DNA from: an uncultured Gammaproteobacteria bacterium
GTDB taxonomy: Bacteria > Pseudomonadota > Gammaproteobacteria > CAWCPV01
DNA length: 64,000 bases
NCBI GenBank assembly: GCA_963797555.1
Contig: CAWCPV010000006.1
Span: 32,001-96,000, forward strand
Direction: 5' to 3'
This document shows positions 17,330 to 43,719 of this stretch, piece by piece (within the stretch, counting starts at the first letter, position 1; every line of letters begins with the position of its first letter). A program made the position numbers and the translations under genes. The notes under the pieces are model-generated. The model saw only the letters and a program-made list of their open reading frames with translations, ran no database searches and was not told the DNA's origin.

Positions 17330-17364
17330 AGGGCGCATCCTGGAGGCGACTCCCGATGCGCCCT
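17330..17364 (+). other. Long hairpin at the 3' end of the TR1 spacer
   Basis: AGGGCGCATC/GATGCGCCCT outer stem, GGAG-GCGA-CTCC inner stem with a GNRA loop. Confidence 0.6.
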
Positions 17365-17555: not shown

Positions 17556-17559
17556 CTAG

Positions 17560-17927
17560 TCGAGCGGCTCGCTGCCGTGCGGCTCACCCTGCACGCGGAC
17601 AGCGCCCAGGTCCTGCCGGTCGCGTGCGGCATTCCCTGGCTCGGCTTTATCGTGTACCCGGACCATCGGCGCGTGAAGCGGCGCAAGGTGGTGGCCGCGA
17701 GCCGCCGGCTCACCGCCCGCTACGACGCCTGGCGCCGGGGCGACATCACCTTCGCCGAACTGGACGCCAGCGTGCAGGGCTGCATCGGCCACGTGCGCTA
17801 CGCCGATTCCTGGGGACTACGGGAACATGTGCTGGCCCGGTTCGACCTGTCCGAGCGATGGCCGTGGAAGCCCAGGACCCGGAAACAACCGCGAAGGCGC
17901 GCTGCGCGCGCCTTCAGAAACCAGTGA
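17560..17927 (+). pseudogene. DGR reverse transcriptase, C-terminal (thumb) fragment
   Basis: RLTLH..GIPWLGFIVYPDHRRVKRRKV..DASVQGCIGHVRYADSWGLR parallels the C-terminus of the RT at 29282-30373; YxDD palm absent. Confidence 0.85.
17893..17915 (-). other. Perfect 10-bp hairpin/cruciform with GCA loop downstream of VR2 (DGR target recognition element)
   Basis: GAAGGCGCGC-GCA-GCGCGCCTTC, 12 nt after the target 2 stop. Confidence 0.75.
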
Positions 17928-20777
17928 TCAGCGATCTGGAGATGGGGGACGAACCACCCGAAAACCGTAGTAGTCGTTGCGGGAATCCGGGCCGCCCCCG
18001 CTGCGGCGGGCGGCACGACAGAGGTAGCGAAGGGAGCACCAGCAACCGCCGCGCAGCGCCCGCAACTCGTCGCCCTTTGTGCCCGTGCGTTCGGGGTTTT
18101 GGTATTCGTTCAGGCACCACTCCCAGACGTTTCCCGCCAGATCGAACACGCCGTGGGGGCTCGCCCCGCCGGGGTAGAGCCCGACGGCGGTGGTGCGGTC
18201 GGGGCCGCCCTCGGCGCTGTTGCAGCGCGCGGCATTCCACTCCCGGCCCCAGGGGTAAACGTTGTTCGGGTCGCCGCCCGTCGCCGCCTTCTCCCACTCG
18301 ACCTCCGTCGGCAGCCGAACCTCGAAGCCGAGCCGATCCGAGAGCCAGCGGCAGAAGGCCACCGCCTCGTACCAGGCAACCGTCTCGCGCGGATGGTTGC
18401 CCTCCGGCCACCTAGGCTCCCAGGCCGCATCGAATCGCTGCGCAAGGCCCTTCCACCACGCGGGATTCGCAAAGCCCGACGGGTCGTCCAGGAAGCAACG
18501 GAACTGGCGATTCGTGACGGGGTAGCGGGCGATGTGGAAAGCGGGCAGGGTGCGCCGCTCGCCCTCTTGGTAGCGGAACTCGCCAGCGGGGACGTCGCCC
18601 CAGTCGATGTCCGGGAGCCACAGCCCAGTCTTCGGGTCCCGGGCGACGCCAACGCCGGGGCGGGTGTCCAGCATCTCCCCCTCCACCTCCACCGCGAGAG
18701 CCTGGCCAATGGCAGCGCGGGCAGCAGGGTCGGGGTCCCGATCGAGGTCGCTGAGCCGCGGGGTCCAGGCGGCCCGCACCCGCTCGAGGGTCGCGGCCGG
18801 AACCCTGGCCCCGCTGCGGGCGAGGCACTGGCCGGCCACCCAGGGCTGGGCGTCGGCCAGCCAGTCGATGATGAGGGTGCAGTCCTCCGGGTAGATGCCC
18901 GCGAGGAGCACCGTCGCCTCCTCCCAGCCGCTGCGCTGCCACCAGCGCTGCACCGGCCAGAGGTCGGCCGCGGCCAGCTCGCGGGCTTGGATCTTGGCCT
19001 GCATCCCCAGGGCGACGAAATACTCCTGCAGGAGCTGGTGGCCGAAGCGGACGTACCCGCCCGTGGGCTCGATCAGGCTCGCCCTGACCGCGAGGCGGTA
19101 CAGCTCCGGCTGCAAGAGCAGGGCGGCATCCCGCGCCGACACCGAGGTCACCGCCTCCGCGCGCCCCGTGTCCTCGCCGTAGCGCTGCATGCTCCAGGCC
19201 ATGCGCCCGGCGGCATCGAGCAGCCGCTCACCGTCAGGGGTCACTACCAGCGACCGGCCGGCCGGGTCCCGCCGACCGAGCCCCTCGCGCTCGATGAGGG
19301 TGTCGACGAAGTAACGGAACAGCACGCCGCGGTTGGCCGGAACCGTCCCGCTGCGCCGATACACCCCGAGCAGCATGACCAGCATGTAGGGGTTGCGCGC
19401 GAGGCGCATGAGGTTGCGGGGCGAGGCCACCTGCTCCGCCCAGACCCGGTAGTCGTGCCCGCTGGTCTTGTGGTAGACATCCGGGCTATCGCGCGGGACC
19501 TCCCGCGCCGAGAAGAACAGCTCCAGGTCGGCACCGGCCGCCTGCCACCTATCCCAGACGGAGCGCACCGCCTCGCCGCCGGCGACAGCCCAGAAGAATG
19601 CCTCGGCGGCCTCGGCGCCGCGCCGGGCACGCTCGGCAGCAGGCAGGTCTTCGGGCTGGGCGGCCGTGAGATAACGCTCGGCGAAGTCGGCGATGCCCGC
19701 AATGGTCAGGGGCTGGATGCGGATGGTGTCGAGCGCGAGGGCCAGGTCCTCACCGTAGTCGTCCTGACGGCAGGTGGCCAGCACCGGAATCGCTTGCGGG
19801 CGGGTCCTGTTCAGCCAGGTCTTTATCCGGCCCGCCTTGTCGGCCCAGGCGCCGGTGGGCAGCTCGTTCAAGCCGTCGAGGAGCAACACGGCGCGGCGGT
19901 CGGTCATCAGGGGGGGAAGGTCGGGCTGCAGCGGCTCGACCTGGCCGGCAAGAAAGTCTTCGAAGGGCGTTGCGTCAGTCCAGTCCCCGAGCTTCACGAG
20001 CAGCGGCAGCGGGGCCCGACCGTCCTCCCGCGCCCGGGCGGCGAGATCCGCGGCGAGCCGCCACAGGGTCGTGGTCTTGCCAGCCCCGGGCGGGCCGAGC
20101 AGCACGGCGCGCGTGATGTCGGGCGTCGGGAAAGCTTCGGTGATGTCCTCGAAACGCCGGGTCTGCTTCTGGCTGCCCGCGCTTCCCACGGCCTCGAAGG
20201 GGATGTGCTGCAGCTCCGGCCGGGCCACCAGCATGGGCAGCGGCGCCTTGTCGTCGCCGCCCAGCTCGGCGGTGCCGGCGAGCGGCGTGTACAGGTCCAC
20301 GTGCTGAAGCTCCCGCAGCTCCAAGCGCCGCAGGTAAGCCAGCTCCCGCTCGCGCGGCTGCTGGGCCGCGAGCGGCGGGGCGGGCACCGGGGCCGGACCT
20401 GGGGCCGGCAGACTCGCCAGCAGCCGGTCCAGGGCACCCTGGTAGTCGCGGAAGAGATCCAGCGCCTGGAGTCGGGCCAGGTCCGCGGGCAGCGGACAGT
20501 CCTCGACCCGCACCGGGAAGATGGGCCGGTCGCGCCGCCGCGCCATGCGCCGCTCCCGCGCCACCCAGGGCCGGGCGTTGGCGGTCGCGCTCACCAGCAC
20601 CACGAACGCGTAGGCCGCAGCGATGGCGTCTGCGATGCGCTGCTCCCACTCGGCTCCCGGCTGGATGTCGCTCACGTCGATCCAGCAGCGGTGGCCGGCC
20701 TCCTCCAGGTCACGCCCAATCTCGCGAGCAAGATCGGCGTTCTCCCGCGCATAGCTGATGAAGATGACGCTGTCCAC
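17928..20777 (-). CDS. NLR-like DGR target 2: TIR - NACHT - FGE-sulfatase/CLec domain with C-terminal VR
   Basis: IFISYAREN..WID..IQPG..WVARE (TIR_2); LGPPGAGKTT; LLLDGLNE; TCR; RNPYML; FGHQLLQEYF; YPVTNRQF, RLPTEVEWEKAA, DLAGNVWEW, RGGCW..GFRVV; GTG start chosen (ORF open from 20801). Confidence 0.9.
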   Translation of the reverse strand: MDSVIFISYARENADLAREIGRDLEEAGHRCWIDVSDIQPGAEWEQRIADAIAAAYAFVVLVSATANARPWVARERRMARRRDRPIFPVRVEDCPLPADLARLQALDLFRDYQGALDRLLASLPAPGPAPVPAPPLAAQQPRERELAYLRRLELRELQHVDLYTPLAGTAELGGDDKAPLPMLVARPELQHIPFEAVGSAGSQKQTRRFEDITEAFPTPDITRAVLLGPPGAGKTTTLWRLAADLAARAREDGRAPLPLLVKLGDWTDATPFEDFLAGQVEPLQPDLPPLMTDRRAVLLLDGLNELPTGAWADKAGRIKTWLNRTRPQAIPVLATCRQDDYGEDLALALDTIRIQPLTIAGIADFAERYLTAAQPEDLPAAERARRGAEAAEAFFWAVAGGEAVRSVWDRWQAAGADLELFFSAREVPRDSPDVYHKTSGHDYRVWAEQVASPRNLMRLARNPYMLVMLLGVYRRSGTVPANRGVLFRYFVDTLIEREGLGRRDPAGRSLVVTPDGERLLDAAGRMAWSMQRYGEDTGRAEAVTSVSARDAALLLQPELYRLAVRASLIEPTGGYVRFGHQLLQEYFVALGMQAKIQARELAAADLWPVQRWWQRSGWEEATVLLAGIYPEDCTLIIDWLADAQPWVAGQCLARSGARVPAATLERVRAAWTPRLSDLDRDPDPAARAAIGQALAVEVEGEMLDTRPGVGVARDPKTGLWLPDIDWGDVPAGEFRYQEGERRTLPAFHIARYPVTNRQFRCFLDDPSGFANPAWWKGLAQRFDAAWEPRWPEGNHPRETVAWYEAVAFCRWLSDRLGFEVRLPTEVEWEKAATGGDPNNVYPWGREWNAARCNSAEGGPDRTTAVGLYPGGASPHGVFDLAGNVWEWCLNEYQNPERTGTKGDELRALRGGCWCSLRYLCRAARRSGGGPDSRNDYYGFRVVRPPSPDR
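17946..18060 (-). repeat. DGR variable region VR2 of target 2
   Basis: Same scaffold as VR1/TR1 (tgt cgN gcc gcc..cgc aac gac..ttt cgN gtg gtt cgt ccc) with NNC/NNT codons at TR AAC positions; over 75 nt, 11 mismatches at TR1 adenines and 9 elsewhere. Confidence 0.75.
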
Positions 20778-20884
20778 AGAAAAAGACCGGGTTGGAGCCA
20801 AGAAATCGGTTCATTGTAGAGATATCTACCGTGCTCTGGCCCCGTCTTTCTCTCGGCCAACTGGCGCTAAATTTCTGGCTACTG

Positions 20885-26815: not shown

Positions 26816-28903
26816 TCAGGGGGCCGCTGGCGGCGGCTCCTGCTCGGGAATCGAGTCCAACTGGGAGAGCCACGCCGCCGCCTCGCCGTCGCTGGGCGCC
26901 CGGTAATCGCCGCGCGGTGACAGCGAGCCGCCCGACCCGACCTTGGGCGCGTTGGGCATGGCGCTGCGCTTGAACTGGCTGAGCTGGAAGAAGCGCTCGA
27001 GGAAAACCCCGAGCCACCGGCGTATTTCGGCGATGGTGTACTCGCGGCGCTCGGACTCCGGGATATCCGGCCACACGCCGCGCGCCGCATCGTGCCAGGC
27101 GCACCAGGCGAGGAAAGCGACCTTCGGCGGGGCGTAGCCGAAGCGCAGGATTTGGTAGAGATTGAAGTCCTGCAGCTCGTAAGGACCGACCACCGCTTCG
27201 GTGCGCTGATTCGGCTGCCCGCCCTCCCCGTCCGGCTCCGCGGGGACCAGCTCGGGACTGATCTCGGTCTCCAGCACCTCCTCCAGCACCGCACTCACCT
27301 CGGGGCCGAGCTGACGCGTCTTCGCTACCCAGCGGATCAGGTACTGGATCAGCGTCTTCGGGACGCTGGCGTTCACGCCGTAGTGGGCCATCTGGTCGCC
27401 CACGCCGTAGGTGCACCAGCCCAGGGCCAGCTCGCTGAGATCGCTGGTCCCGACCACCAGGCCGCCGTGGCGGTTCGCCAGCCGGAACAGCAGGCTGGTG
27501 CGTGCGCCCGCCTGCACGTTCTCGAAGGTCACGTCGTACACCGGCTCACCCCGCGCGTAGGGGTGATCGATGTCGCGCAGCATCTGCAGGCAGCCGGGGC
27601 GGATGTCCACCTCCCGCGCGGGGCACCCCAGGGCCGCGATGAGGCGCCGCGCCTGCGCCAGGGTGCGGGCGCTGGTCGCGAAGCCCGGCAGGGTATACGC
27701 AAGCACATGGCTGCGCGGCAGCCCCAGCACGTCCATGGCGTGGCCGCACACCAGCAGCGCCTGGGTCGAGTCGAGCCCCCCCGAGACGCCGATGACCACC
27801 TTGTCCACTTGCGCGGCGTGCAGGCGCTTCACCAGCCCCTGCACCTGGATCTCGTACACCTCCCGGCAGCGCTCGTCGCGCCGGTTCGGATCGCTCGGAA
27901 CATAGGGGAAACGCTCGTAAGCCCGCTCCGGCAGCAGCACGCCCCGGCTGGGAAGGTCGAGCGGCACCGGCACCGTACGATAGTCCTGCAGGTCCTGCCG
28001 GTGGCGGTAGCGTGCCTGGGCGAAGGTGCCCTGGCGCATCCTGTCCTGAACGAGACGCTCCAGGTCGACGTCCCCGGTGACGAGCTGGGCGCTATAGCGG
28101 AACCGCTCCGACTCCGCGATCCGCGTCCCGTTCTCGTAGATCAGGGCGTGCCCGTCCCAGGCCAGCTCCGTGGTCGACTCCCCGCTCCCGGCCGCGCAGT
28201 ACACGTAGGCCGCGAGGCAGCGCCCCGACTGGTTCTCCACGAGCTGGCGGCGGTAGTCCGCCTTGCCCACGGTGATGTTCGACGCGGACAGGTTCACGAG
28301 CACCGTGGCGCCCGCCAGCGCCGCATAGCTCGAAGGCGGGATGGGCACCCAGAGGTCTTCGCAGATCTCCACCGAGAAGGTCAGCAGCGGCTGACTCTCG
28401 GCCGCGAACAGCAGGCGGTTGCCGAAGGGCACGTCGCGGCTCCCGAGCAGGTCCACGGTGCTCCTGCCGGCCACGTCCGCCGGCGTGAACTGGCGCAGCT
28501 CGTAGAACTCCCGGTAGTTGGGGAGGTAGGTCTTGGGGACGATCCCCAGCAGCTTGCCGCGGTAAAGCACCGCCGCGCAGTTGTAGAGCAGCCCGTCCAC
28601 TTGGAGCGGCAGCCCCACTACCGCGACCACGGGCAGCGCATGGGAGGCGTGCAGGATACGCGACAGAGCGTCCACGCAGCCGTCCAGCAGCGCCTGCTGG
28701 TGGAACAGGTCCTCGCAGGAATAGGCCGACAGCCCCAATTCCGGGAACACGACCAGCGCCGCCCGCCGCGCCGCCGCCCGTTCCAGCAGCGCGATGGTCT
28801 GGGCGGCGTTGAACGCCGGGTCCGCCACCTTCACCTCGGGCGACGCGGCCGCGACCCGCACCATACGGTGGCGGTAAAGGTTGAAGAAGTCTTCGGTTTC
28901 CAT
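26816..28903 (-). CDS. nadE: Glutamine-dependent NAD+ synthetase
   Basis: Nitrilase domain ([23 protein letters not shown]) plus [20 protein letters not shown]; start at METEDFF. Confidence 0.95.
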
Positions 28904-29146
28904 GGCCTGTCGCGGAGCTTCGAGCCAGACCACTCTAGTGGAGCGAGCGCTGCCGCCGCAAGGGCGCTGAATCCTCGGTCCGGTAGCCGGCTGGAGGGCG
29001 ACCCCGATTCCCTGTGTAAGACATCCCGGCGGCTGTCGCTCCCGCCGGGAGCCAGGACAGCCGCCGGGCACCGCTCTCATCATGACCGGCGTTGGACGCG
29101 CGAGCGCACTCCTGGCCCGTCCTTGAACGGGCCGGCTCCCGCCTCG

Positions 29147-29272
29147 CAGCGTACTGGCAACACGAAACCCCAGGTTGTTGTTCCGATCGGAGACGGTATT
29201 CCTGTTGCGGTTGGCGGAGCGCACGTTCTGCGGGGTATTGTTCCAACTGCCGCCGCGGTTCACGCGCCGCCC
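29147..29272 (-). ncRNA. DGR template repeat TR2
   Basis: 126-nt ungapped match to 30808-30933 with 21 mismatches, 18 at TR adenines; GGCCCGT/ACGGGCC hairpin at 29114-29133 just 3' of it. Confidence 0.95.
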
Positions 29273-29281
29273 TGACGCCGG

Positions 29282-30373
29282 TCAGGCTCCCGCGGGCCGG
29301 TCGGACCCGGCAGGTGCCGGGTCGAACCAGCCGCCGCGAAAGATGGCGTGGCGCAGCCGCCGCGTGTGCCCATGCGCGGCGTGCGCGACCCAGGACTGCA
29401 CCCGTTGGCGCACCTCCTTCTCGGTGACGGTCCCCTGCCCCCAGCGGTCGCGCAGCCCCCGCAAACGGTTGCGGAAGCGCCGGACATTGGATTCCGGCAG
29501 GCGCCGCCGCCCGTTTGCGTGCAGCTCGAAGCCGAGGAACGTCGCCGGCTCGGCGGTCGCCAGAACCAGGGTCTTGTCCGGGTGCAGCGACAGGCGGCGC
29601 CGGGCGAGATATTCGGCGATGCGCTCCCGCCATGCCGCGAGCTGCGCCGGGTCGTCGTGGAACAGTGCCAGATCGTCCACGTAGCGGACATAGCCGGGCG
29701 CGCGCAGGACTTCCTTGACGAAGTGGTCCAGGCCATCCAGGTAGACGTTGGCGAAGAGCTGGCTGGTCAGGTTGCCAATGGGCAGCCCGCGGCGGCGCTC
29801 GAAGGGTGTGAACAGGCCGTCACCCGGGTAGTAGAGATGGACCGGCTCCTGGGGATTGGAGCCGTCGACGATCAGGTCCAGCAAGCGCAAGGCGCGCGCG
29901 CAGGCGATGCGCCGGCGCAGATCCCGCTTCAGGATGGCGTGGTCGATCGCCGGAAAGTACCGGTAGATGTCGGCGCGCAGCACGTATCGGTGGCGGTCGC
30001 GGTAATGCTCGTAGCGGGCAACGGCGCGGTGGGTGCCCTTGCCCCGGCGGTTGGCGAAGCTGTCCGGGATGAAGCCGCGCTCGAACAGCGGCTCCACCAC
30101 GGCGCAAAGGGCATGATGCACCACCCGGTCGCGAAACGGCGCGGCCGACACCCGCCGCGGCTTGGGGTCGCGCACCTCCATCACCGTGTAGCCGCCGGGC
30201 CTCCACGAGCCGTCGCGCAGCGCCCGCTCCAGGACCAACAGGTTCGTCTCCAGTCCCGCCAGGAAGGCGGCGACGCCGGCCTTGGCGCGCTTGCCGCGCG
30301 CCGCCCGCTGTGCCGCCGCGTGCAGGGCGTGAAAGTTGGCGATGCCCTCGAACAGATGATCAGCCCTGCGCAC
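29282..30373 (-). CDS. DGR reverse transcriptase
   Basis: FRDRVVHHA, GKGTH, DIYRYFPAIDH, GLPIGNLTSQ (DGR-type SQ motif), YVRYVDD, FLGF. Confidence 0.97.
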   Translation of the reverse strand: MRRADHLFEGIANFHALHAAAQRAARGKRAKAGVAAFLAGLETNLLVLERALRDGSWRPGGYTVMEVRDPKPRRVSAAPFRDRVVHHALCAVVEPLFERGFIPDSFANRRGKGTHRAVARYEHYRDRHRYVLRADIYRYFPAIDHAILKRDLRRRIACARALRLLDLIVDGSNPQEPVHLYYPGDGLFTPFERRRGLPIGNLTSQLFANVYLDGLDHFVKEVLRAPGYVRYVDDLALFHDDPAQLAAWRERIAEYLARRRLSLHPDKTLVLATAEPATFLGFELHANGRRRLPESNVRRFRNRLRGLRDRWGQGTVTEKEVRQRVQSWVAHAAHGHTRRLRHAIFRGGWFDPAPAGSDRPAGA

Positions 30374-30758
30374 CGCGGTCGGCCTTCATCCAGCCCCCCA
30401 CCAGCCGCCCCACCTCGTCCACGCTGCGGGCGACGTGCTCGTAACGGCGCAGATCGAGGTAGCCGAGATCCTTCGATAGCCGAAACAGAAAACGCAGCTT
30501 CTCCAGCCGCAGGTTCACCCGGCGCAGGATCGGCGCCGCCTCGCGCGTGTAGGTGGCCTCGATCAGCCCTTCCAGCAAGTCCAGCGCCGTGCCCTGGATG
30601 CGGTCGCCCAGCAGGAAGCGCTGGCTGCGCGGGAACTTCTCCACCGTCGGGATCATCCACAGCAGAAACTGGTAGGCCCGCTCCAACGCCGGGCCGTGGC
30701 GCCGCGCCGGGTCGGGCTGCCGACCCGGCGCGGCGCGCGGTGGCTGGGTGCTCGCCAC
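30360..30758 (-). CDS. avd: DGR accessory variability determinant Avd
   Basis: KFPRSQRFLLGDRI..LEKLRFLFRL..YEH..EVGRLVGGW four-helix bundle; overlaps the RT start. Confidence 0.93.
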   Translation of the reverse strand: MASTQPPRAAPGRQPDPARRHGPALERAYQFLLWMIPTVEKFPRSQRFLLGDRIQGTALDLLEGLIEATYTREAAPILRRVNLRLEKLRFLFRLSKDLGYLDLRRYEHVARSVDEVGRLVGGWMKADRGAQG

Positions 30759-30792
30759 GACGGGGTAAAGGGGTAAAGAAGCTAAGCCCTAA

Positions 30793-30811
30793 GCTGCCGT
30801 TTCACGGCAGC
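30793..30811 (-). other. 8-bp hairpin with GAA loop overlapping the target stop (DGR cis element)
   Basis: GCTGCCGT-GAA-ACGGCAGC; absent after TR2. Confidence 0.8.
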
Positions 30812-31968
30812 GTCCTGGCAACACGAAACCCCGGGGCGCCGTTCCGAGCGGAGACGGGATACCAGCCGCGGCTGGCGGAGCGCACGAACAGCGGGGAAGA
30901 GTCCCAACTGCCGCCGCGGTTAACGCGCCGCCCGCAGTCGCCCCGGTGGCTGGCGCTGCCGTCGGCCGGCGCGCCCGCGTAGCTCTCGTCGTAGCAGTCC
31001 TCGGTCCATTCCCAGACGTTTCCCAGCATGTCGTAGAGCCCGAATGCGTTCGGCCGGAAGGAGCCCACCGGGGCGGTGTCGGGGTAGCCGTCGTCGCAGG
31101 CGAAGGCCGGCCAAGGGTACCGCGACGAATATTTGGTCTCGCCGGACCAATCATAGACGTTGGCGAACTGACAGGCGCGGTCCGTCGACGTGCCCCAGAA
31201 CCGGGGCTTCTGCGATCCGGCGCGCGCCGCGTACTCCCACTCCGCCTCGCTCGGCAGACGGTATCCCTTGCCGGTCTTCTCCGACAGCCACTCGGTGAAG
31301 CCCACCGCCTCCTCCCAGGTGACGTTGATGACCGGCTGGCGACCGCGGCCCCAGCCCTCGTCTCCCACCTGCCCACAGTCCCCGGCACGCGCGCACGCGT
31401 CCCACTCGTTGAAGGTCACCTCGTACTTGCCCAGCGCAAAGGGCTTCGCCAAGGTGACCTCGTGGGCGGGCCCCTCGTTGTTGTCGCGCCCCGCCTCGCT
31501 GGGCGGCGAGCCCATCACGAAGGACCCGGCCGGGATGACCACCATCGCCGGGCAAACGTCGCAGTCCTGGAACTCGGTGCCGGGCTTAGGGTAACGCGGC
31601 GCGGCGCTGGCGGTGCCCTTCCCGGACAGCTCGGCGAGGCGGCGCTTCGCCTGGGGTGCCACCGGGCTGTTCGGGTCCGCCTTGAGCGAGGCATCGAAGC
31701 GCGCGCGGGCCTGGTCCTTCTTGCCCAGCGCCAGATAGGTCTCGCCCAGGTAGTAGTTCGCCGGGGCATTGTCGGGCTCGACCTTGAGCCCTTGCTCGAA
31801 CTTGGCCGCCGCTGCGTCGAGCTTGCCCGCCTTCCTCAGCTCGAAGGCGTCGAAGAACAATTGCTGCGCGCCCCCTTGCTGCGCATGGCCATTGCCCGAC
31901 CCGACAGCGGTAGAAAAAAGCACCAACCACACCATGAGCCCAAACGGTTTCAGCAGAACCTTCCCCAT
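30802..31968 (-). CDS. DGR target 3: signal peptide - TPR - FGE-sulfatase/CLec domain
   Basis: Hydrophobic N-terminus, TPRs (ANYYLGETYLALG), FQDCDVCPAMVVIPAGSFVMGS, RLPSEAEWEYAARAG, NAFGLYDMLGNVWEW. Confidence 0.93.
   Translation of the reverse strand: MGKVLLKPFGLMVWLVLFSTAVGSGNGHAQQGGAQQLFFDAFELRKAGKLDAAAAKFEQGLKVEPDNAPANYYLGETYLALGKKDQARARFDASLKADPNSPVAPQAKRRLAELSGKGTASAAPRYPKPGTEFQDCDVCPAMVVIPAGSFVMGSPPSEAGRDNNEGPAHEVTLAKPFALGKYEVTFNEWDACARAGDCGQVGDEGWGRGRQPVINVTWEEAVGFTEWLSEKTGKGYRLPSEAEWEYAARAGSQKPRFWGTSTDRACQFANVYDWSGETKYSSRYPWPAFACDDGYPDTAPVGSFRPNAFGLYDMLGNVWEWTEDCYDESYAGAPADGSASHRGDCGRRVNRGGSWDSSPLFVRSASRGWYPVSARNGAPGFRVARTLP
30808..30933 (-). repeat. DGR variable region VR3
   Basis: Encodes [42 protein letters not shown] versus TR2 [42 protein letters not shown]. 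Confidence 0.95.
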
Positions 31969-32191
31969 CTTTGCCTCCCTTGCGGCGTGGCCGCTTACCA
32001 AAACGAGTATTAATAGTACAGGCTTACTGGGGCACGGTTTTCCCCACCGGGACGGCGGTCAGGACTCGGCCGAGACGGCCCCGGAAAGATACGAGCCAAA
32101 GAGTCGATGTCGTTAAACAAGCCGCTACAGCTTCGATGGTCCAGACAGCGGGGCGCAGGATCGAAGCCCATGCCTGGAGGAGGGAGCGTCC

Positions 32192-33728
32192 ATGAATTCC
32201 ACCCGCCTGTCGTTCACCGCTGTCCTCGCGGCGCTGTTCTTGCCTCAGGCGCAGGCCTAATATCTCTCTCTACGGAATAGTCACGGAACCCGTCTTGCCG
32301 ACGTCGTTCCAAGAGTGTTACGCGATGGCGCAGGCCTTCAACGCCGTCACCCAGAAAATCTCCGATCAGCTCATGCGGTGCGTAGATCAGTACAACGGTC
32401 TTGAGGTGATTCCGCCCCATTGCAAGAAGTACCTACGTGAGCAGGACGAGGCCGACAGGGCGAGAGATCAGGCTTTGGACGCATGCCGCGCCAAAGTGGC
32501 GGCCTACCTGGAACAGCAGCGAGAAATGGAACGGGAAAAGCAAAAGCAGGAACAGGAGCGGTTGGCGCGCGAGCGTCGGGACAGCGAGGAGCGGGACGCA
32601 CGCGAGACAAGGCGCCAAGACGAGCGGCACGAGCGCGAGGCGCGCCAGGCTCGGGAGGAGCGGCGCAGAGAGGAAGACGCGCGGAGCAGGCAAGAACGGG
32701 AGGCACGGCGCCAAGACGAGCGGCGCGACGGCGGAGAGAAACGGGAAGCAAAGAGCGCCAAGGATCGGGACCGTGAGTCGCATGAAGCGCGACAGGCATC
32801 ACTTTGGCAAAAAATCTTGGACGCGTCCGAGCGGTCGAGGGAGCCGGAAGCGGAGCACCCCCAAGCAGAGGAAGCCCGCGCCGAGGAGCGTCAGCAGGAG
32901 ACCGAGCAGGGTCGCCAAGAGGAAGAGACCCATTACTGGGATCTCGTAAAGAATCTGAAGGAAGGCGCCGGCCTGGCGAAGGACATCGCCGAGATCGGCG
33001 AGAATCCATTCGGGGCGTCCGCCCAGAAGGGCGGCGAAGCCGTCAGCAGCTTCTTGGTGGGCAAGGGGGTCGGTGTTGCGACCGGAGGCTTACCGGAGCA
33101 CGAGGATCAAGGCTACGGCGCGATAGCCTCCGGGGTGGATGAAATGCGCAGCCAGGCATTGGCGCGTAACCCGTTCGCGGCCGAGATTTCCGGGCAGGCG
33201 TTTCAAGGGATTCGCAGGGTCCAAGGCGCCGTTCTGGGCCAGGCCGAGGACCTCGGGGAACAGGTCTCGGAGATCGGCCGCGAGGAGGCGCCGAGTTCTG
33301 CCGGCGCGGCTAACCCCTTCCAGCCGCCTCGGCGGCGCTTCGTTCAGGACGTTGCCGAGCCGCCCCAACCGGTGGCCCGTGCGCAGGTGCGGCAGGTCGC
33401 TCAGCCGGCACCGCAGCCCGCGCCACAGTCGTTCGCATCGACGAGTACGGAGAATCCGTTCGGTCGGCGCTCGACTCCGGTCACCTACGACGACCTGGAG
33501 AGCGGCACTCGCTTCGACATTTCGCCAGGTCATGCCCTCTACCGGGACCCGGCGACCAGGCGCCTGCGCGTCGTGAGCCTGGCTGAGTTGCCGGCAGGCG
33601 CCGGGCGCGGCGACCAGCCCGGTGCCGGGAAGGTGGGATGCAGTGCGACGGGGGTTGGAATCGTCACTCCGGAGTGCGAGAAGGCGCGCCGTGCCAGCGT
33701 GAATCCTTTCGGAAGCGGTCAGAAGTAG
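32192..33728 (+). pseudogene. Secreted coiled-coil protein with five NPF motifs; signal peptide cut off by a stop and a frameshift
   Basis: RBS plus ATG 32192 gives MNSTRLSFTAVLAALFLPQAQA then TAA (32258-32260); TA(TC)4 tract; main ORF 32295-33728 in another frame. Confidence 0.6.
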
Positions 33729-33825: not shown

Positions 33826-34182
33826 TCAAGCCGCATCCCGGATCTCCGCGTGAATAACGATCTCATCGAAAGGCGCAGCGAGTTTCCCGTCCTCGTCCCT
33901 TTCCAGCAGCCCAAGCTCGACCAGCTCCTTGACGTCGGTGTGGACGTTCTTGTAGTCGCGGCTAAGCCCCTGCGCGAGCTGGCGGACGTTCAGAGTCTGA
34001 TGAGCGGCCACGTGGCGCAACAGCTCCAGCCGTTTTTCGGTGATAGTGGAAAACAGCTCCCGCAGGCTCCCGAACGCGAGGCGCGGGGTGGACGACTCTC
34101 CAGCCTCCAATCGCCGCCAGGCCTCGGCGAAGGCATTCAGGCCGGCCTGCGGCCTCATCACCATGATCTCGATCCGGTTCAT
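33826..34182 (-). CDS. HTH protein, putative antitoxin/regulator (HVO_A0114-like)
   Basis: TEKRLELLR..VRQLAQGLSRDYKNVHTDVKELVELGL..PFDEI; ATGA-coupled to the upstream gene. Confidence 0.8.
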   Translation of the reverse strand: MNRIEIMVMRPQAGLNAFAEAWRRLEAGESSTPRLAFGSLRELFSTITEKRLELLRHVAAHQTLNVRQLAQGLSRDYKNVHTDVKELVELGLLERDEDGKLAAPFDEIVIHAEIRDAA

Positions 34183-34469
34183 TCCCACCTCCAGCCCGCC
34201 AGGCGCACGCAATCGGCGCGGAAGTCGGCGATCAACCTGTGCAGCGAATCGAACCGGTAAGGGTGTTCCCCGTCGGCGTCATGTCGATGGTCACCCTTGC
34301 CGCTCTCGTTGTCGTACCGAACGAGACACTTGCCGGCGCGACCGCAATACAGCCGGTATTTGAGCCCATGAGCCCGCTCCGGGGTAACTCCCGGTAAGGC
34401 CCAGATGACCATCTCCACGAACACATCCGCCTGCCGGGCCTTGTACCGGAAGATCTGCCGTGCCCGCAT
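34179..34469 (-). CDS. DUF6516 family protein, putative toxin
   Basis: HGLKYRL..VRYDNESGKGDHRH..YRF..LIADF. Confidence 0.8.
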   Translation of the reverse strand: MRARQIFRYKARQADVFVEMVIWALPGVTPERAHGLKYRLYCGRAGKCLVRYDNESGKGDHRHDADGEHPYRFDSLHRLIADFRADCVRLAGWRWE

Positions 34470-38087: not shown

Positions 38088-40205
38088 GTGAATCATAGCG
38101 AAATCGTCAGCTTCCTCTGGGGTGTCGCCGACCTGATCCGGGACACGTTCAGACGCGGCCATTACCAGGACGTCATCCTCCCCCTCACGGTCCTGCGCCG
38201 GCTCGACTGCGTCCTGGCCCCGAGCAAGGCGAAGATCCTCGCCACCCAGGCCAGGTTCAAGGGGAAGATCGAGAACCTGGACCCGCAGCTCCGCAAGGCG
38301 GCAGGCTTCGCCTTCTACAACACCTCCCGCTACGACTTCGAGAAGCTCCTGGCGGACGCCCCGCACCTGGCCGCCAACCTGCGCAACTACATCGCCGGCT
38401 TCAGCCCGAACATGCGCGAGGTGATCGAGAAGTTCGACTTCGACAACACCCTCAGCAAGCTCGACGAGGCCGGGCTGCTGTTCCAGGTGATGGAGCGCTT
38501 CAAGAACGTCGACCTGCACCCGGACAAGATCGACAACCCCACCATGGGGACCATCTTCGAGGAGCTGATCCGCAAGTTCAACGAAGCGCTGAACGAGAAC
38601 CCCGGCGAGCACTTCACGCCGCGCGATGTCGTCCACTTGATGGCGGACCTCCTGCTCGCAGGGGACCAGGCCCGAATCCGCAAGCGAGGGGTGGTCCTCA
38701 CGGTCTGCGACCCGTGCTGCGGATCGGGCGGCATGCTCACCATCACCAAGGACCACGTCACGGTCGGCGTTCGCAGCAACAGCGGCGTGGTGCGCGGGCC
38801 CATCAATCCCGACGCCGACATCCACCTGTTCGGCCAAGAGGTGAATCCCGAAACCTTCGCCATCTGCAAGTCCGACCTCTTCATGAAGTCGACCGACGGG
38901 CGGGACGCCGAGAACATTCTCTACGGGAGCACCCTCTCCAACGACCGCCACGCCGCCCGCGGGTTCGACTACCTGATCGCGAATCCCCCTTACGGCAAGG
39001 ACTGGAAGCGCGACGAGGACGCCGTGCGGGCCGAGCACGAGCGCGGCGCGGGCGGGCGGTTCGGGCCGGGCCTGCCGCGGATCAGCGACGGGCAGCTCCT
39101 GTTCCTGCTGCACATGCTGGCCCACATGAAGGCGCCGAAGGACGGCGGCTCCCGCGTCGCGATCATCATGAACGGCTCGCCCCTCTTCACCGGCGACGCC
39201 GGGAGCGGGGAGAGCGAGATCCGCCGCTGGATTCTCGAGAACGACTGGCTGGAGGCCCTGATCGCACTCCCCGAGCAGCTCTTCTACAACACCGGCATCG
39301 CCACCTACGTCTGGGTGCTCACCAACCGCAAGGCGCCCGAACGCAAAGGCAAGGTCCAGCTCATCGACGCGACCTCGTTCTGGGCGCCCATGCGCAAGAG
39401 CCTGGGCGACAAGCGCCGCGAGGTCCCGCGCGAGCGCGCCCAGGACATCCTGAAGATCCTCGCCGATTTTCGGGACGGCGATACCCGGACGGTGGCCAAG
39501 GACGCCAAAGAAGAGGAAGTCGTCGTCAGCCGCATCTTCCCGACTACCCACTTCGGCTTCCGCAAGATCACCGTCGAGCGCCCGCTGCGGCTCAACTTCC
39601 AGGCCAGCCCGGAACGTATCGCGCGGATCGAAGAGGAAAAGGGCTTCCAGACGATCGCGCAGCCCAAGAAGAAAGGCCCCGCCGGGGAGCAAGAGCAGGC
39701 CCAGGGCCGGGCCTTGCAGGAGTCGATCCGCAAGGTGGTGCACGGGCTGCCGAACACCCTCATAAAGGATCGTGCCGAGTTCGAGCGCCTGCTCGACGCC
39801 GTTACGACGAAGGCCGGCGTGAAGCTCCCGGCGCCCGCCAGGAAGGCCGTCCTCTCCGCGCTTTCGGAACGCGACGAGACGGCCGCCATTTGCTGCGACA
39901 AGGACGGCAACCCGGAGCCCGACCCGGAGCTGCGCGATACGGAGAGCGTGCCGCTCGCCGAGCGCGTCGAAGCCTTCTTCGATCGCGAGGTCAGGCCTCA
40001 CGTCCCCGACGCGTGGATCGACACATCCAAACGCGACCCCAAAGACAGCCAGGTCGGTCTCGTGGGCTACGAGATCAACTTCAACCGCTACTTCTACCGT
40101 TACACGCCGCCGCGCCCTCTGGAGGAGATCGAGGCGGACATCCGCGGCATCGAGAGGGATATCGTCCGCATGCTGGCGGAGGTGACCGGATCGAAGGTGC
40201 TCTGA
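38088..40205 (+). CDS. hsdM: Type I RM methyltransferase subunit (m6A)
   Basis: GEHFTPRDVV, DPCCGSGGML, GQE, NPPY, FYNTGIATY, GYEINFNRYFY. Confidence 0.95.
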   Translation: MNHSEIVSFLWGVADLIRDTFRRGHYQDVILPLTVLRRLDCVLAPSKAKILATQARFKGKIENLDPQLRKAAGFAFYNTSRYDFEKLLADAPHLAANLRNYIAGFSPNMREVIEKFDFDNTLSKLDEAGLLFQVMERFKNVDLHPDKIDNPTMGTIFEELIRKFNEALNENPGEHFTPRDVVHLMADLLLAGDQARIRKRGVVLTVCDPCCGSGGMLTITKDHVTVGVRSNSGVVRGPINPDADIHLFGQEVNPETFAICKSDLFMKSTDGRDAENILYGSTLSNDRHAARGFDYLIANPPYGKDWKRDEDAVRAEHERGAGGRFGPGLPRISDGQLLFLLHMLAHMKAPKDGGSRVAIIMNGSPLFTGDAGSGESEIRRWILENDWLEALIALPEQLFYNTGIATYVWVLTNRKAPERKGKVQLIDATSFWAPMRKSLGDKRREVPRERAQDILKILADFRDGDTRTVAKDAKEEEVVVSRIFPTTHFGFRKITVERPLRLNFQASPERIARIEEEKGFQTIAQPKKKGPAGEQEQAQGRALQESIRKVVHGLPNTLIKDRAEFERLLDAVTTKAGVKLPAPARKAVLSALSERDETAAICCDKDGNPEPDPELRDTESVPLAERVEAFFDREVRPHVPDAWIDTSKRDPKDSQVGLVGYEINFNRYFYRYTPPRPLEEIEADIRGIERDIVRMLAEVTGSKVL

Positions 40206-40213
40206 CGCGAAAA

Positions 40214-40304
40214 GTCGGCACGGATATCACAGATGCCGACATTATGTGTTGACACGCCCGTTTGTCCGACGCATATTGCAGGCATGTCACAACAGCGTGC
40301 CGAC
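40214..40304 (+). promoter_or_regulatory. abiE promoter with inverted-repeat operator
   Basis: GTCGGCA(40214)-13 nt-TGCCGAC(40240); TTGACA(40249)-17 nt-CATATT(40272); third TGCCGAC at 40298. Confidence 0.6.
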
Positions 40305-40922
40305 AATTCGAGTCAATCCCCCAAGTCTTCGGAGCCCGTCGACCTGCTTCGCAGCGCCGCTCTGGGTGCCTTCTTCCGTCCGAGCCAGATCCATGCGGCA
40401 GGACTATCGCGCGACCAGCTCCCGGCCCTCGTGCGATCGGGGAAGGTCGAACGAATCGGTCGCGGCCTCTACCGGCTCGCGGACGCCGAGCCGACCGAGA
40501 ACTACTCCCTGGCGATGGCGTGCGCGCGGGTGCCGAACAGCATCGTCTGCCTGCTCTCCGCCCTGCGCGTCCATGGCATCGGCACCCAGGCACCGGCCGA
40601 GGTCTGCCTCGCCATTCCGCACAAGGCGCGCATGCCGCGCCTCCCCGAACTCAAGCTGCGCGTCGTGCGCTTCAGCGGACCTGCTTGGACGTTCGGTGTA
40701 CAGACGACCGCGTTCGAGGGCGTGCCGGCACGGATCACCTCCCCCGCGCGGACCGTGGCGGACTGCTTCCGGTTCGAGCGCCTCGTGGGGCCCGAGGCTG
40801 CGATGGAAGCGCTGCAGGACGCCCTGCGACAGCGGAAGGTCACGATCCCCGAACTCTCGCGCGTGGCGGAGATCCTTCCGTCGCGCCGCCTCAGCGCCGC
40901 GCTGGACACGAGGTTGATATGA
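40284..40922 (+). CDS. abiEi: Type IV TA antitoxin AbiEi
   Basis: wHTH VERIGRGLYRL, CLLSALRVHG, ITSPARTVADCFR; coupled to the toxin. Confidence 0.88.
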   Translation: MSQQRADNSSQSPKSSEPVDLLRSAALGAFFRPSQIHAAGLSRDQLPALVRSGKVERIGRGLYRLADAEPTENYSLAMACARVPNSIVCLLSALRVHGIGTQAPAEVCLAIPHKARMPRLPELKLRVVRFSGPAWTFGVQTTAFEGVPARITSPARTVADCFRFERLVGPEAAMEALQDALRQRKVTIPELSRVAEILPSRRLSAALDTRLI

Positions 40923-41854
40923 CTGCAGACGTGGCGGCGTCGGTCAGGGCCCGTCTCCTGAACCAGGCAAAGGCGAGCGGGGAGGAGTTCGAGCGAACCC
41001 TGGCGCGCTTCGCCGCCGAGCGGCTGCTCTTTCGCCTCGGTGAATCCGCGGCGCGAGACCGTTGCATCCTGAAAGGCGCCAGCCTCCTTGCGGTATGGCT
41101 TCCGGATCCTTACCGGGCAACCCGCGATGTGGACGTGCTGCTCTCGGGACAGGCGGACGACGCCGCGATCCGGTCGCTGGTGGCGGAGATCTGCGCGATG
41201 GCCTGTCCCGAAGACGCCCTCCGCTTCGACCTCTCCAAGCTGGTCGTCGAGACGATCCGGCCCGAGGACGAGTACTCGGGCAAGCGCGCCCGCTTCCGCG
41301 CGTTCCTCGGCAACGCGCGGATCGCCGTGCAGCTTGACCTTGGCGTTGGCGACGCGTTGACCGTACAGCCCGAAGAGATCGTCTACCCGACGATGCTCGA
41401 CACCCTGCCCCCGCCCCGGCTCCGCGCCTATCCGCGCGAGGCGTCCGTCGCCGAGAAGTTCGAAGCGATGGTGAAGCTCGACACGCGCAACAGCCGGATG
41501 AAGGACTTCCACGACATCTGGGCGCTTGTGGGCGCCTTCGAGTTCGATGGCCCGTCGCTCCAGAAAGCAATCGCGGCCTGCTTCGAGCGCCGGGGCACAC
41601 CGTGGACCGATGAACTCCCGCGCGTCCTGACCCCGGCGTTCTACCAGATGCCGGATATGGAGACGCGCTGGCGGAACTACCGCGCGGCGGGTGCCGTGCT
41701 CGCCCCGCTGCCGCCCCAGTTCGCGGTCATCGGAGAGCGCATCATCGAGTTCCTTGGCCCTGTCCGGAGCAGCATCGCCGCGGGAGAGGCGTTCGAGCGT
41801 GCCTGGGCGCCGGGAGGCCCTTGGATGTCTGCCGGACAAGAGAACACAGAATGA
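40919..41854 (+). CDS. abiEii: Type IV TA nucleotidyltransferase toxin AbiEii
   Basis: ASVRARLLN, LKGA..RATRDVD, AEKFEAMV, NSRMKDFHD. Confidence 0.9.
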   Translation: MTADVAASVRARLLNQAKASGEEFERTLARFAAERLLFRLGESAARDRCILKGASLLAVWLPDPYRATRDVDVLLSGQADDAAIRSLVAEICAMACPEDALRFDLSKLVVETIRPEDEYSGKRARFRAFLGNARIAVQLDLGVGDALTVQPEEIVYPTMLDTLPPPRLRAYPREASVAEKFEAMVKLDTRNSRMKDFHDIWALVGAFEFDGPSLQKAIAACFERRGTPWTDELPRVLTPAFYQMPDMETRWRNYRAAGAVLAPLPPQFAVIGERIIEFLGPVRSSIAAGEAFERAWAPGGPWMSAGQENTE

Positions 41855-43719
41855 TCGGCGCCAGCTTCGACAGCACCAAGACCCCGCTTCACGACCTGCT
41901 CGCACGGGCCGACGGCGGCAAGCTCCAGCTTCCGGATTTTCAGCGCGGCTGGGTCTGGGACGACGACCGCATCCGGAGCCTCCTCGCCAGCGTGTCGGTC
42001 TCTTTCCCGATCGGTGCCGTGATGTTGCTCGAAACGGGCGGCGAGCACGTCCGCTTCAAGCCGCGGCCCCTCTCCGGAACGCACGAGCGGCTGCGCCAGA
42101 TCGCGCCCGAGACGTTGATCCTCGACGGCCAGCAGCGGCTGACATCGCTCTACCAGGCGCTGATGAGCGCGGTGGTGGTCGAGACCAAGGACGCCAAGGG
42201 CAAGCCGATCCGCCGCTGGTACTACATCGACATGAAGCAGGCCGTGACTAACGACGACGACCGCGAGGACGCGGTGCTGAGCGTCCCCGAGGACCGCCAG
42301 GTCAAGGCGTTCGGCGGCGAGATCGCTTTGGACGTGACGACACCCGAGCGGGAGTACGGAGCCGACCTCTTTCCCGTGAACCGGATTTTCCAGAGCGCGG
42401 AGTGGCGTCAGGCTTACAACAAGCACTGGAACTACGTACCCGAGAAGATCCAGCTCTACGACGAGTTCGAGCGCGAGGTCATCAAGCGGTTCGAGCAGTA
42501 TCAGGTGCCGGTGATCGAGCTGAAAAAGGAGACACCCAAGGAGGCCGTCTGCCTGGTCTTCGAGCGCGTGAACACGGGGGGCATGGCGCTCAACGTGTTC
42601 GAGCTGCTCACGGCCGCCTTTGCCGCGGACGATTTCCAGCTCCGCGATGACTGGAACGCCCGCGAGCAGCGCCTGAAGGGCCAGCACCCCGTGCTGCGCA
42701 ACCTCCAGAGCGACGACTTCCTCCAGGCCATCTCGCTCCTCGTGACGCAGAGGCGCCGCCACAACACGCTCGCGGCCGGCGTCGCCGTCGACAAGGCGCC
42801 CGGCATCAGTTGCAAGCGCAAGGACATCCTGAAGCTCGAGGTCGCCGACTGGCAGGCATGGGCCGAACGCGTCGAGGCCGGTTTCGTGCGCGCCGCGCGC
42901 TTTCTGTACGGGCAGAAGATATTCAAGGCGCGGGATCTGCCCTACCGCACCCAGCTCGTGCCGCTCGCCGCGATGTTTGTGAACCTCGGCCAGGACGGTG
43001 AGACCGAGGGTGCCCGCCAGCGGATCGCCCGATGGTACTGGTGTGGGGTTCTCGGCGAGCTTTACGGCGGCGCCATCGAGAGCCGCTTCGCGCGCGACCT
43101 GCCGGAGGTGGTCGCCCTGGTGCGCGGCGAGGGGAGCGAGCCGATCAGTATCCAGGAGTCGAGCTTCCAGGCCAACCGGCTGCTGACGCTGCGGACGCGC
43201 AACAGCTCGGCCTACAAGGGAGTCTACGCGCTCCTGATGCGCGACGGCGGGCGGGACTTCCGCACCGGCGAGCCGATCGAAGCCCAGACCTTCTTCGACG
43301 ACAAGGTCGACATCCACCACATCTTCCCCGAGAAGTGGTGCAAGGCGGCCGGCATCGAGCCCGGCACCTACAACAGCGTGATCAACAAGACGGCGCTCGC
43401 CGCCAAGACCAACCGCCAGATCGGCGGCCGCGCGCCGTCGAAGTACCTGCCTGCGATCGAGAAGGCCGCTGGTGTTGGTACCGAGCGTATGGACGAGATC
43501 CTGCGTTCGCATTGCATCGCACCGGGAGAACTGCGGGCCGACCGCTTCTGGGAGTTCTACGCTGCACGCGCCGAGGCGCTGCTCCAGCGCATCGAGGCCG
43601 CGACGGGCAAGACCATCACGCGCGAGCCGGAACTTTTCCGCGCCGGGGTCGTCGCCGAAGTCTACGACGAGGGGCCGGAGGAATGGGACGCCGAGGAGCC
43701 GATCGAGGAGGCGTCGTGA
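41851..43719 (+). CDS. GmrSD-like (DUF262 + HNH/DUF1524) modification-dependent nuclease
   Basis: DFQRGWVW, LDGQQRLTS, FERVNTGG, DIHHIFP..INK..TN. Confidence 0.88.
   Translation: MIGASFDSTKTPLHDLLARADGGKLQLPDFQRGWVWDDDRIRSLLASVSVSFPIGAVMLLETGGEHVRFKPRPLSGTHERLRQIAPETLILDGQQRLTSLYQALMSAVVVETKDAKGKPIRRWYYIDMKQAVTNDDDREDAVLSVPEDRQVKAFGGEIALDVTTPEREYGADLFPVNRIFQSAEWRQAYNKHWNYVPEKIQLYDEFEREVIKRFEQYQVPVIELKKETPKEAVCLVFERVNTGGMALNVFELLTAAFAADDFQLRDDWNAREQRLKGQHPVLRNLQSDDFLQAISLLVTQRRRHNTLAAGVAVDKAPGISCKRKDILKLEVADWQAWAERVEAGFVRAARFLYGQKIFKARDLPYRTQLVPLAAMFVNLGQDGETEGARQRIARWYWCGVLGELYGGAIESRFARDLPEVVALVRGEGSEPISIQESSFQANRLLTLRTRNSSAYKGVYALLMRDGGRDFRTGEPIEAQTFFDDKVDIHHIFPEKWCKAAGIEPGTYNSVINKTALAAKTNRQIGGRAPSKYLPAIEKAAGVGTERMDEILRSHCIAPGELRADRFWEFYAARAEALLQRIEAATGKTITREPELFRAGVVAEVYDEGPEEWDAEEPIEEAS

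Follow-up and report, generated by a model that had tools for sequence, protein, structure and literature searches.

The diversity-generating retroelement (DGR) of Bordetella phage BPP-1 has the order mtd-avd-TR-brt, in which the template repeat (TR) and its spacer precede the reverse transcriptase (RT) gene and the target is the phage tail protein Mtd. The RT of DGRs is marked by the motif [I/V/L]GxxxSQ, which replaces QGxxxSP, and the residues R74 and I181 of the Bordetella phage enzyme promote misincorporation opposite adenine (PMC7826257). Stem-loops together with bracketing duplexes were predicted in 207 of 278 Avd-bearing DGRs (10.1101/2023.10.23.563531). The order avd-RT-TR was named Architecture B2 by Wu et al. 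2018 (PMC5758913) and corresponds to group 2 in the DiGReF survey (PMC3521204). Target category 'b', in which a CLec1 variable repeat (VR) lies in an FGE-sulfatase domain, is the largest one (71 of 372 DGRs; Wu et al. 2018, PMC5758913). The DGR of Treponema denticola (Architecture C) comes with an accessory HRDC gene, and its remote targets number seven (PMC5758913). In multicellular purple sulfur bacteria and others, DGRs diversify sensors of STAND-NTPase or ternary conflict systems (PMC10907252). In this work, we analyzed a 64,000-nt stretch of DNA from an uncultured Gammaproteobacteria bacterium (assembly GCA_963797555.1, contig CAWCPV010000006.1, positions 32,001 to 96,000), referred to as the window, and describe a cassette of target gene, avd, RT gene and TR on its minus strand.

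The cassette is very likely a chromosomal, sequence-intact DGR of the avd-RT-TR type (Architecture B2). All DGR parts are present and undamaged, and the element is probably active, judging from its intact elements. As in BPP-1, Avd accompanies an RT with the [I/V/L]GxxxSQ motif, counterparts of R74, I181 and Q187 and three catalytic aspartates. Also common to both are adenine-only differences between TR and VR, a putative GC-rich inverted repeat at the VR end, and a TR whose predicted stem-loops, TR:spacer duplex and bracketing duplex follow one another along the spacer as in the phage. In contrast to BPP-1, TR and spacer follow the RT gene, the target is composed of a leader peptide, TPR repeats and an FGE-type domain, and the setting is cellular. 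When compared with Architecture B2 DGRs of target category 'b', the order and the target class are the same and nothing essential differs, although TPR is absent among the partner domains named in the accessible part of PMC5758913. The T. denticola DGR is likewise cellular and has an FGE-type C-type-lectin target, TvpA, thought to be extracytoplasmic. However, neither an HRDC gene nor a second VR was found in the window.

The DGR is real, but it belongs to a large, already catalogued class whose architecture and target class are known, and the locus adds one cellular DGR to tens of thousands. The more useful product lies at the level of the clade, in which target, avd, RT, TR and an RNA module of about 260 nt (flanks included) are held within 3 kb. 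Covariation supports the fold of this module, and each of its elements has a counterpart in the solved Bordetella phage RNA. With such a compact cassette and RNA fold, cellular DGRs of the B2 type become directly testable for priming, termination and target choice in comparison with the phage, and for the role of a pyrimidine motif on the VR side.

Cassette layout, repeat pair and proteins

The longest direct repeat in the window connects 29146-29272 (TR) with 30807-30933 (VR) and covers 127 nt at 83% identity. An earlier note on this stretch, made from the sequence alone, had given 126 nt, a boundary difference of one base. TR and VR are mismatched at 21 of the 127 positions, and 18 of these are TR adenines, as had been counted before. 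The TR contains 28 A in 127 bases, ten of which are unchanged in the VR, and the association between adenine and mismatch is strong (A/non-A versus mismatch/match, one-sided Fisher p = 4.1e-12). The 18 adenine substitutions alter 13 codons, again in agreement with the earlier count, and every one is non-synonymous. In the numbering of the 399-codon open reading frame (ORF), the altered codons are 367-369, 371, 372, 377, 379-382, 385, 388 and 389. The changes are confined to repeat positions 30-97, which contain 23 of the 28 TR adenines. TR adenines are distributed over codon positions 1, 2 and 3 as 16/12/1, with ten AAY codons (AAC or AAT), and by computation no stop codon can be reached by adenine substitution in the TR. 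The ceiling of adenine substitution is 7e16 DNA variants and 3e16 protein variants, which concern the last 42 residues of the target. A search of both strands of the window for a second target of the TR gave as the best other site one that matches at 57 of 99 non-adenine positions, so that no second target is present within the 64 kb.

The features of the cassette are listed below by window position.

31974-31980 (-): Shine-Dalgarno-like AGGGAGG before the target ATG
30802-31968 (-): target gene, 388 aa, ATG at 31968 and stop TGA at 30802-30804 (ORF list)
31882-31968 (-): predicted Sec-type signal peptide, residues 1-29 (hydropathy scan, homologue alignment)
31657-31839 (-): TPR repeats, residues 55-115 of the 399-codon ORF (Pfam TPR_16, TPR_19, TPR_2 and others)
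30814-31554 (-): FGE-sulfatase domain PF03781, residues 150-396, profile positions 2-255 of 255 (Pfam)
30807-30933 (-): VR, final 42 codons of the target (repeat search)
30793-30811 (-): GC-rich inverted repeat with 8-bp stem and GAA loop (DNA fold)
30765-30777 (-): pyrimidine-rich tandem motif TTTAC, 3 nt, TTTAC, between target stop and avd start
30360-30758 (-): avd (accessory variability determinant), 132 aa, GTG start at 30758 (NCBIfam, Pfam, PHROGs)
30699-30736 (-): perfect 17-bp hairpin with 4-nt loop within the 5' coding part of avd (RNA fold)
29282-30373 (-): DGR RT gene, 363 aa, GTG start (Pfam RVT_1, solved-structure match)
29275-29284 (-): predicted 5' strand of the bracketing duplex, starting with the RT stop codon, pairs with 29083-29092
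29146-29272 (-): TR (repeat search)
29025-29145 (-): predicted spacer-like structured RNA 3' of the TR (RNAalifold, covariation, covariance model)
29111-29135 (-): predicted spacer hairpin 1, directly 3' of the TR (RNAalifold)
29094-29104 (-): predicted 3' strand of the TR:spacer duplex, pairs with TR 29143-29154
29083-29092 (-): predicted 3' strand of the bracketing duplex, in a conserved linker, pairs with 29275-29284
29025-29068 (-): predicted long GC-rich spacer hairpin 2 (RNAalifold)

According to the ORF coordinates, the order on the minus strand is target, avd, RT and TR, so that the TR lies downstream of the RT as the earlier note had stated. Its left border at 29110 was drawn too short: the cassette as such stands, whereas the functional element reaches about 29025, some 85 nt further. 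The first 14 nt of the RT gene are shared with the end of avd; the TR begins 10 nt past the RT stop. The next gene after the TR and spacer is nadE, the likely ATG of which is at 28903. The TR runs in frame without a stop into nadE, which creates a spurious 815-aa ORF at 26816-29263 (-). As a result, ORF finders join the two, and automatic annotation may add a false N-terminal extension to nadE. Two terminator-like sites were found in 28700-32400, which is no more than in shuffled sequences. The 17-bp stem of the avd hairpin is also carried by the related locus L018, with a different loop.

The RT translation contains IGNLTSQ and YVDD, the two motifs that had been noticed before. The best solved match of the RT is 8ub7_A (328 aa, nine entries; E 5e-44), the residue numbers of which agree with those given for bRT of the Bordetella phage in a cryo-EM preprint (10.1101/2023.10.23.563531). 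IGNLTSQ aligns to I181-Q187 and the YVDD aspartates to D215/D216 of this structure; residue by residue, R73, D135, I199, Q205 and D233/D234 align with R74, D138, I181, Q187 and D215/D216, respectively. The identity to the phage enzyme is low, with two aligned stretches and 154 bits. Avd, described earlier as intact, scores above the curated cut-off of the NCBIfam equivalog NF033474 (107.5 bits against 80) and above that of Pfam bAvd (62.2 bits against 40), and it matches PHROG 3206, 'Avd protein of DGR'. The Avd sequence gave no match to solved structures at E<=0.01, so its family assignment comes from the profile libraries.

The RT has at least 8000 homologues, all at E<=1e-20, and the top matches are 70-85% identical. 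Within the genome collection, the closest RT belongs to a Chromatiaceae assembly (85% identity). In many homologues the annotation extends some 60 residues further or includes an extra Pfam match to FGE-sulfatase, as happens when ORF callers run from the RT into the adjacent TR. For a survey of the clade, 80 loci from a collection of species-representative genomes were scanned for adenine-biased repeats. Among the 53 loci with an RT at least 60% identical, a TR/VR pair was found in 39, with the TR after the RT in 36 and before it in three. The 27 loci below 60% identity gave 17 pairs, four with the TR after and 13 with the TR before the RT. In the 36 closer loci with the TR after the RT, the TR starts from 4 nt before to 65 nt after the end of the RT match, and in 33 of them a VR precedes the RT, mostly some 1.65 kb ahead of the TR. 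Host lineages include Alpha-, Beta- and Gammaproteobacteria, Binatia, Latescibacterota, Dehalococcoidia and others. The stress laid by the earlier note on an unusual gene order is therefore unwarranted, as this is the order of Architecture B2 and 36 of 39 close relatives with a TR/VR pair are alike. The cassette fits this architecture also in having avd, RT and TR on one strand and no HRDC, MSL or CH1-type gene adjacent.

Structured RNA around the template repeat

A covariation-supported RNA module brackets the TR; it is new in this analysis and was absent from the earlier note. The TR with its flanks was aligned for the window and 36 loci (37 sequences), with L024 (doubtful anchor) and L049, L069 and L075 (no anchor) excluded from the RNA alignments. 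RNAalifold, run unguided, predicts four helices: a bracketing duplex, a TR:spacer duplex and hairpins 1 and 2. The bracketing duplex comprises 10 bp between the RT stop-codon region (29275-29284) and the conserved spacer segment 29083-29092. In the alignment 96.4% of its cells are paired, and a compensatory change is present in 8 of the 10 pairs. As the TR follows the RT gene, the RT stop region, rather than the end of avd as in BPP-1, supplies the upstream strand of this duplex. The TR:spacer duplex pairs the 3' end of the TR, G.ACGC (within 29143-29154), with GCGU.C of the spacer (within 29094-29104).

Over the named structure, 92.6% of the pairs are standard, compared with 35-46% when the partners are slid by 1-3 columns. 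Changes on both sides were found in 28 of 37 pairs, and none of 500 shuffles was as high by any measure. When the bracketing duplex was searched for without gaps, 23 of the 37 rows had 10 bp or more in the common register; the alignment-based pair count was preferred over this search. Furthermore, a covariance model was built on the central 88 positions of the module. It has one match in the window, with 80.2 bits, and the loci range from 56 to 95 bits. The model matches all 53 loci with an RT at least 60% identical, 18 of which were outside its training set. The module comes after the RT in 49 of these loci and before it in four (L013, L014, L016 and L020), which have the same spacer module upstream of an RT of 62-68% identity. 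Within the clade, the TR-spacer unit has thus changed its place relative to the RT.

Rfam, searched over the whole window at gathering thresholds, gave no match at the DGR, which places the TR-flanking RNA outside any curated family. The predicted spacer order is a stem-loop, a priming-type duplex, 2-3 nt, the bracketing duplex, an A-rich strand and a long stem-loop, and the spacer RNA of the Bordetella phage has the same order of elements (10.1101/2023.10.23.563531). The modelled RNA is a clade-specific version of a known design.

Proposed donor/target discrimination and probable activity

We hypothesize that the cassette most likely works like the Bordetella phage element, with the RNA parts rearranged around the RT gene. 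By this analogy, a single transcript would run from the avd-RT region through the TR into the spacer of about 120 nt, and the TR would be bracketed by the 10 bp that join the RT stop-codon region to the spacer. The duplex between the 3' end of the TR and the spacer would position a spacer nucleotide as the primer, and cDNA would start at or next to T 29153. Hairpins 1 and 2 would bind Avd and RT. The RT-Avd complex would then copy the TR toward its 5' end with random bases opposite adenines, and the cDNA would replace the VR. The target could be told from the donor in three ways: by G in the VR against T in the TR directly 5' of ACGC, by the GC-rich inverted repeat over the stop codon, and by the differing sequence downstream of VR and TR.

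The first of these differences is at repeat position 119, T in the TR and G in the VR (S396R), directly 5' of the spacer-pairing ACGC. In the predicted fold this T faces a spacer C and is unpaired; by analogy with G117 of the phage TR, position 119 would be the first template base or its neighbour. A TR pyrimidine opposed to a VR purine was found at this site in 31 of 38 TR/VR rows (28 Y/G and three C/A). In at least five of the remaining seven rows the anchor pattern had slipped, and gapped TR/VR pairs were excluded. Past the last variable adenine, the repeats differ at a T>C and at this T>G and then diverge, in the manner of the zone of initiation of mutagenic homing (IMH/IMH*). Because the same difference recurs across the clade, the T/G at position 119 is, as far as the aligned sequences tell, a conserved donor/target difference of the IMH/IMH* kind and not decay.

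On the target side, the GAA-loop hairpin that had been placed over the target stop was confirmed at 30793-30811. The stop TGA spans the last stem base and the loop, and the hairpin overlaps the end of the VR homology. The loop has 3 nt; opening of the closing T-A pair would widen it to 5 nt. The arms recur in L005 and L018 (GAA loop), L003 (GAAT) and L033 (GAAA); because they are identical in these four relatives, there is no covariation by which to judge the hairpin. Perfect hairpins near the VR ends, with stems of 6 bp or more, were limited to 9 of the 41 flanks scanned in relatives. Most relatives have instead a GC-rich hairpin 35-60 nt further on from the VR end. Inverted repeats of the phage type occur in only 34% of DGRs (Wu et al., PMC5758913).

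The pyrimidine motif is more widespread on the VR side. The strict TTTAC tandem was found in 18 of 46 VR 3' flanks, compared with 21 occurrences in a background of 1.25 Mb (all loci, both strands). A hidden Markov model of the motif, trained on 17 loci, produced 32 hits. VR flanks account for 27 of them, and at least three of the five other hits are at places where a VR flank is expected. Loci with the motif in the VR 3' flank include L003, L007, L009, L012, L017, L018, L021 and L022, among others. The motif, with the GC-rich hairpin in most relatives, also follows five extra VRs, four of which have no avd homology behind them. Its sequence resembles the 3' end of 16S rRNA. Two ideas for its function are a target-recognition element and an anti-Shine-Dalgarno-like regulator of avd translation.

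Taken together, these sites lead to a tentative proposal, which we consider possible and not yet probable, that the clade follows its own donor/target rule: a site with a TR pyrimidine and a VR purine, plus a pyrimidine motif and a GC-rich hairpin present only at the VR. In its first part, the first template base may always be a TR pyrimidine facing spacer C, with a purine, usually G, in the VR. In its second part, the tandem pyrimidine motif and hairpin may follow the VR and never the TR, also at extra VRs that lack avd. Such a rule was not found in the accessible parts of the DGR literature searched. If it is true, the recognition elements for cDNA integration would be a simple, portable target tag for cellular DGRs.

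Several observations weigh against a working, exported-target DGR of this kind. The energy of the GAA hairpin is modest (z = -2.0), as 12 of 200 shuffles fold as well. The hairpin also departs from the rule for phage DGRs, in which the inverted repeat has a stem of 7-10 bp and a 4-nt GRNA loop and lies 4-34 bp after the VR (PMC3240598), whereas here a 3-nt loop overlaps the VR end. The proposed priming nucleotide and hairpin roles are carried over by analogy. The signal peptide was read by hand from hydropathy, and not with a trained predictor. At repeat position 100, 3 nt past the last variable adenine, T>C leads to L390P in the VR, a non-adenine change at a conserved scaffold position, since residue 390 is Leu (15) or Val (3) in 18 of 18 aligned TPR-FGE homologues. 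A scan of 28700-32400 found no sigma-70-like promoter, and the GTG-started avd has no purine-rich ribosome-binding site upstream. Moreover, the target forms a 90% identity cluster of one member, which offers no natural VR variants for comparison.

The last four points, from L390P to the missing population variants, would be expected if the intact cassette no longer diversifies, either because it was silenced or because a host factor was lost, and the VR is the frozen product of past activity. The decayed DGR 12 kb away in the window points in the same direction, as it means that DGRs die in this genome. L390P is the one sign of VR drift since the last rewriting, or else an RT error at a non-adenine; if position 100 lies within the copied stretch, it would be a post-homing change or a rare RT error. 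On the other hand, all ORFs are full length with catalytic residues kept, and the 80.2 bits of the RNA module lie inside the range of the relatives. Non-adenine mismatches affect only 3 of 99 positions, all outside the adenine-variable stretch. One of these, at position 119, is clade-wide, and another, G>T at position 11, is silent (codon 360) and precedes the first variable adenine by 19 nt. According to Wu et al. 2018 (PMC5758913), copying in DGRs has a loose 5' limit, and 23% of catalogued DGRs contain non-adenine TR/VR differences. We therefore regard a frozen cassette as unlikely and prefer the reading as an intact DGR that is probably still active.

Target protein and genomic setting

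Pfam assigns the target to FGE-sulfatase (E 5e-60) and TPR families, in agreement with the TPR protein with a C-type-lectin-like domain proposed in the earlier note. The best solved relative of the FGE domain is PvdO, a protein of pyoverdine maturation with the FGE fold (5hha; E 1.4e-57, residues 125-387), and TvpA of Treponema is matched with E 1.5e-11 (2y3c). The NCBIfam PvdO model gives 237.7 bits against a cut-off of 500; as this score is far under the equivalog cut-off, the target is not a PvdO orthologue. Only the target's own sequence exceeded 66% identity in the protein search. Among the matches listed, TPR and FGE families occur together in 52 of 119 non-self hits. The VR forms the last 42 codons of the target, within the FGE-sulfatase domain, and the variable alignment columns of TPR-FGE proteins coincide with the adenine-bearing codons of the TR. 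On the best explanation, the VR residues make up the binding face of an FGE/C-type-lectin domain that is linked to TPR repeats. According to the hydropathy scan, residues 1-29 contain two Lys and a hydrophobic core some 15 residues long, with G-H-A preceding Q-Q, and a leader ending in A-x-x-Q is present in 18 of 19 aligned TPR-FGE proteins, the target included. Because of this probable signal peptide, the target is probably periplasmic or exported.

In the relatives, all 31 scanned targets end in FGE-sulfatase. The partner domain is none in 13 of them, caspase in six, TIR in four, protein kinase in three and ankyrin in two, with one case each of WD40, OmpA and TPR, the latter in L018, the nearest relative. 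This count leaves out 10 of 41 VR-bearing ORFs that are shorter than 200 aa (stops, frameshifts, contig ends). Stops or frame breaks in or just before the VR were noted in L003, L005, L033 and L050, and also in L008, L019, L040 and L076, and the VR-bearing ORF of such relatives is below 110 aa. In L003 and L033, a TR AAA codon is able to mutate to a stop. Some of the broken VR ORFs may be assembly artefacts of mixed VR populations.

These partner domains bear on the alternative that the target, instead of being an exported binder, serves a conflict (defence) system as a sensor in the cytoplasm or at the membrane, a role proposed for many cellular DGR targets (PMC10907252). The FGE domain is fused to caspase, TIR or kinase in 13 of the 31 targets of relatives, and defence genes abound in the window (type I restriction-modification, GmrSD, AbiEi, TumE toxin). 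However, the target itself consists of TPR and FGE only by Pfam, with no NTPase or effector domain, and it has the hydrophobic A-x-x-Q-type leader shared by the aligned proteins; in both respects it differs from the targets of conflict-system DGRs (PMC10907252). A Pfam scan of the neighbours found no MoxR, vWA or STAND gene adjoining the cassette. Furthermore, PvdO, its best solved relative, is periplasmic. A sensor role is accordingly improbable, and we keep to a probably periplasmic or exported binder.

A still weaker case can be made for a prophage or plasmid element that diversifies its own receptor-binding protein. DGRs were first discovered in phage, and PHROGs has families for Avd and RT. 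Phage structural genes (capsid, tail or terminase among them) were absent from the matches of 12 proteins, nine of them neighbours, compared with PHROGs, and from those of 18 neighbours compared with Pfam. The PHROGs matches among the 12 proteins were only DGR parts, a toxin-antitoxin pair, a ligase and a ZnuA-like protein. The RT is at best 41% identical to 107 matching phage records and 53% to 330 matching plasmid records, whereas its chromosomal relatives reach 62-85%. In addition, the flanks are nadE and housekeeping-type genes, and base composition has no step at the cassette borders (G+C 0.69-0.71, matching nadE). A mobile element is thus very improbable, and the cellular DGR without nearby phage genes described in the earlier note is borne out. 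Finally, an ordinary partial gene duplication beside an unrelated RT by chance, for which nothing speaks beyond the bare presence of the repeat, is already refuted by the adenine bias and its concentration at codon positions 1 and 2, by the Avd and DGR-type RT between the copies and by the recurrence of the layout in 36 relatives, and has a negligible probability.

A second, decayed DGR is located at 14203-20801, and its parts are as follows.

14203-16908 (+): target, DUF4062-nSTAND1-FGE
16798-16895 (+): VR
17059-17156 (+): TR
17393-17518 (-): avd fragment, about 42 residues
17556-17834 (+): RT fragment, about 94 residues
17928-20801 (-): target, TIR-NACHT-FGE

Its two targets are of the NLR-like sensor kind (PMC10907252), and in this respect the window's second DGR, and not the intact cassette, resembles the DGRs of conflict systems. 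TR and VR of this DGR have 19 mismatches in 98 positions, of which eight are non-adenine, compared with 3 of 21 in the intact cassette. The possibility that the intact RT serves the TR at 17059-17156 in trans was considered and is unsupported, given that the spacer model has no match there and 8 of the 19 mismatches are non-adenine. The window, from a probable purple sulfur bacterium, would thus hold an apparently working hypermutation device for a probably exported TPR-lectin protein at a distance of 12 kb from a dead DGR for NLR-like sensors.

Beside the target gene and divergent from it, 32295-33728 (+) encodes a 477-aa protein with a Glu/Arg-rich middle and imperfect DNA repeats at 32560-32733; it matched no Pfam, NCBIfam or PHROGs family. 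A probable toxin-antitoxin pair follows at 33826-34469 (-), with a TumE family toxin at 34179-34469 and an HVO_A0114/MarR-like protein at 33826-34212. A defence-type cluster at 38088-50120 (+) comprises a type I restriction-modification methylase and R subunit, AbiEi, GmrSD and Fic. The only Rfam match in the window is a group II intron at 57247-57484 (+) (RF02005, 72.9 bits).

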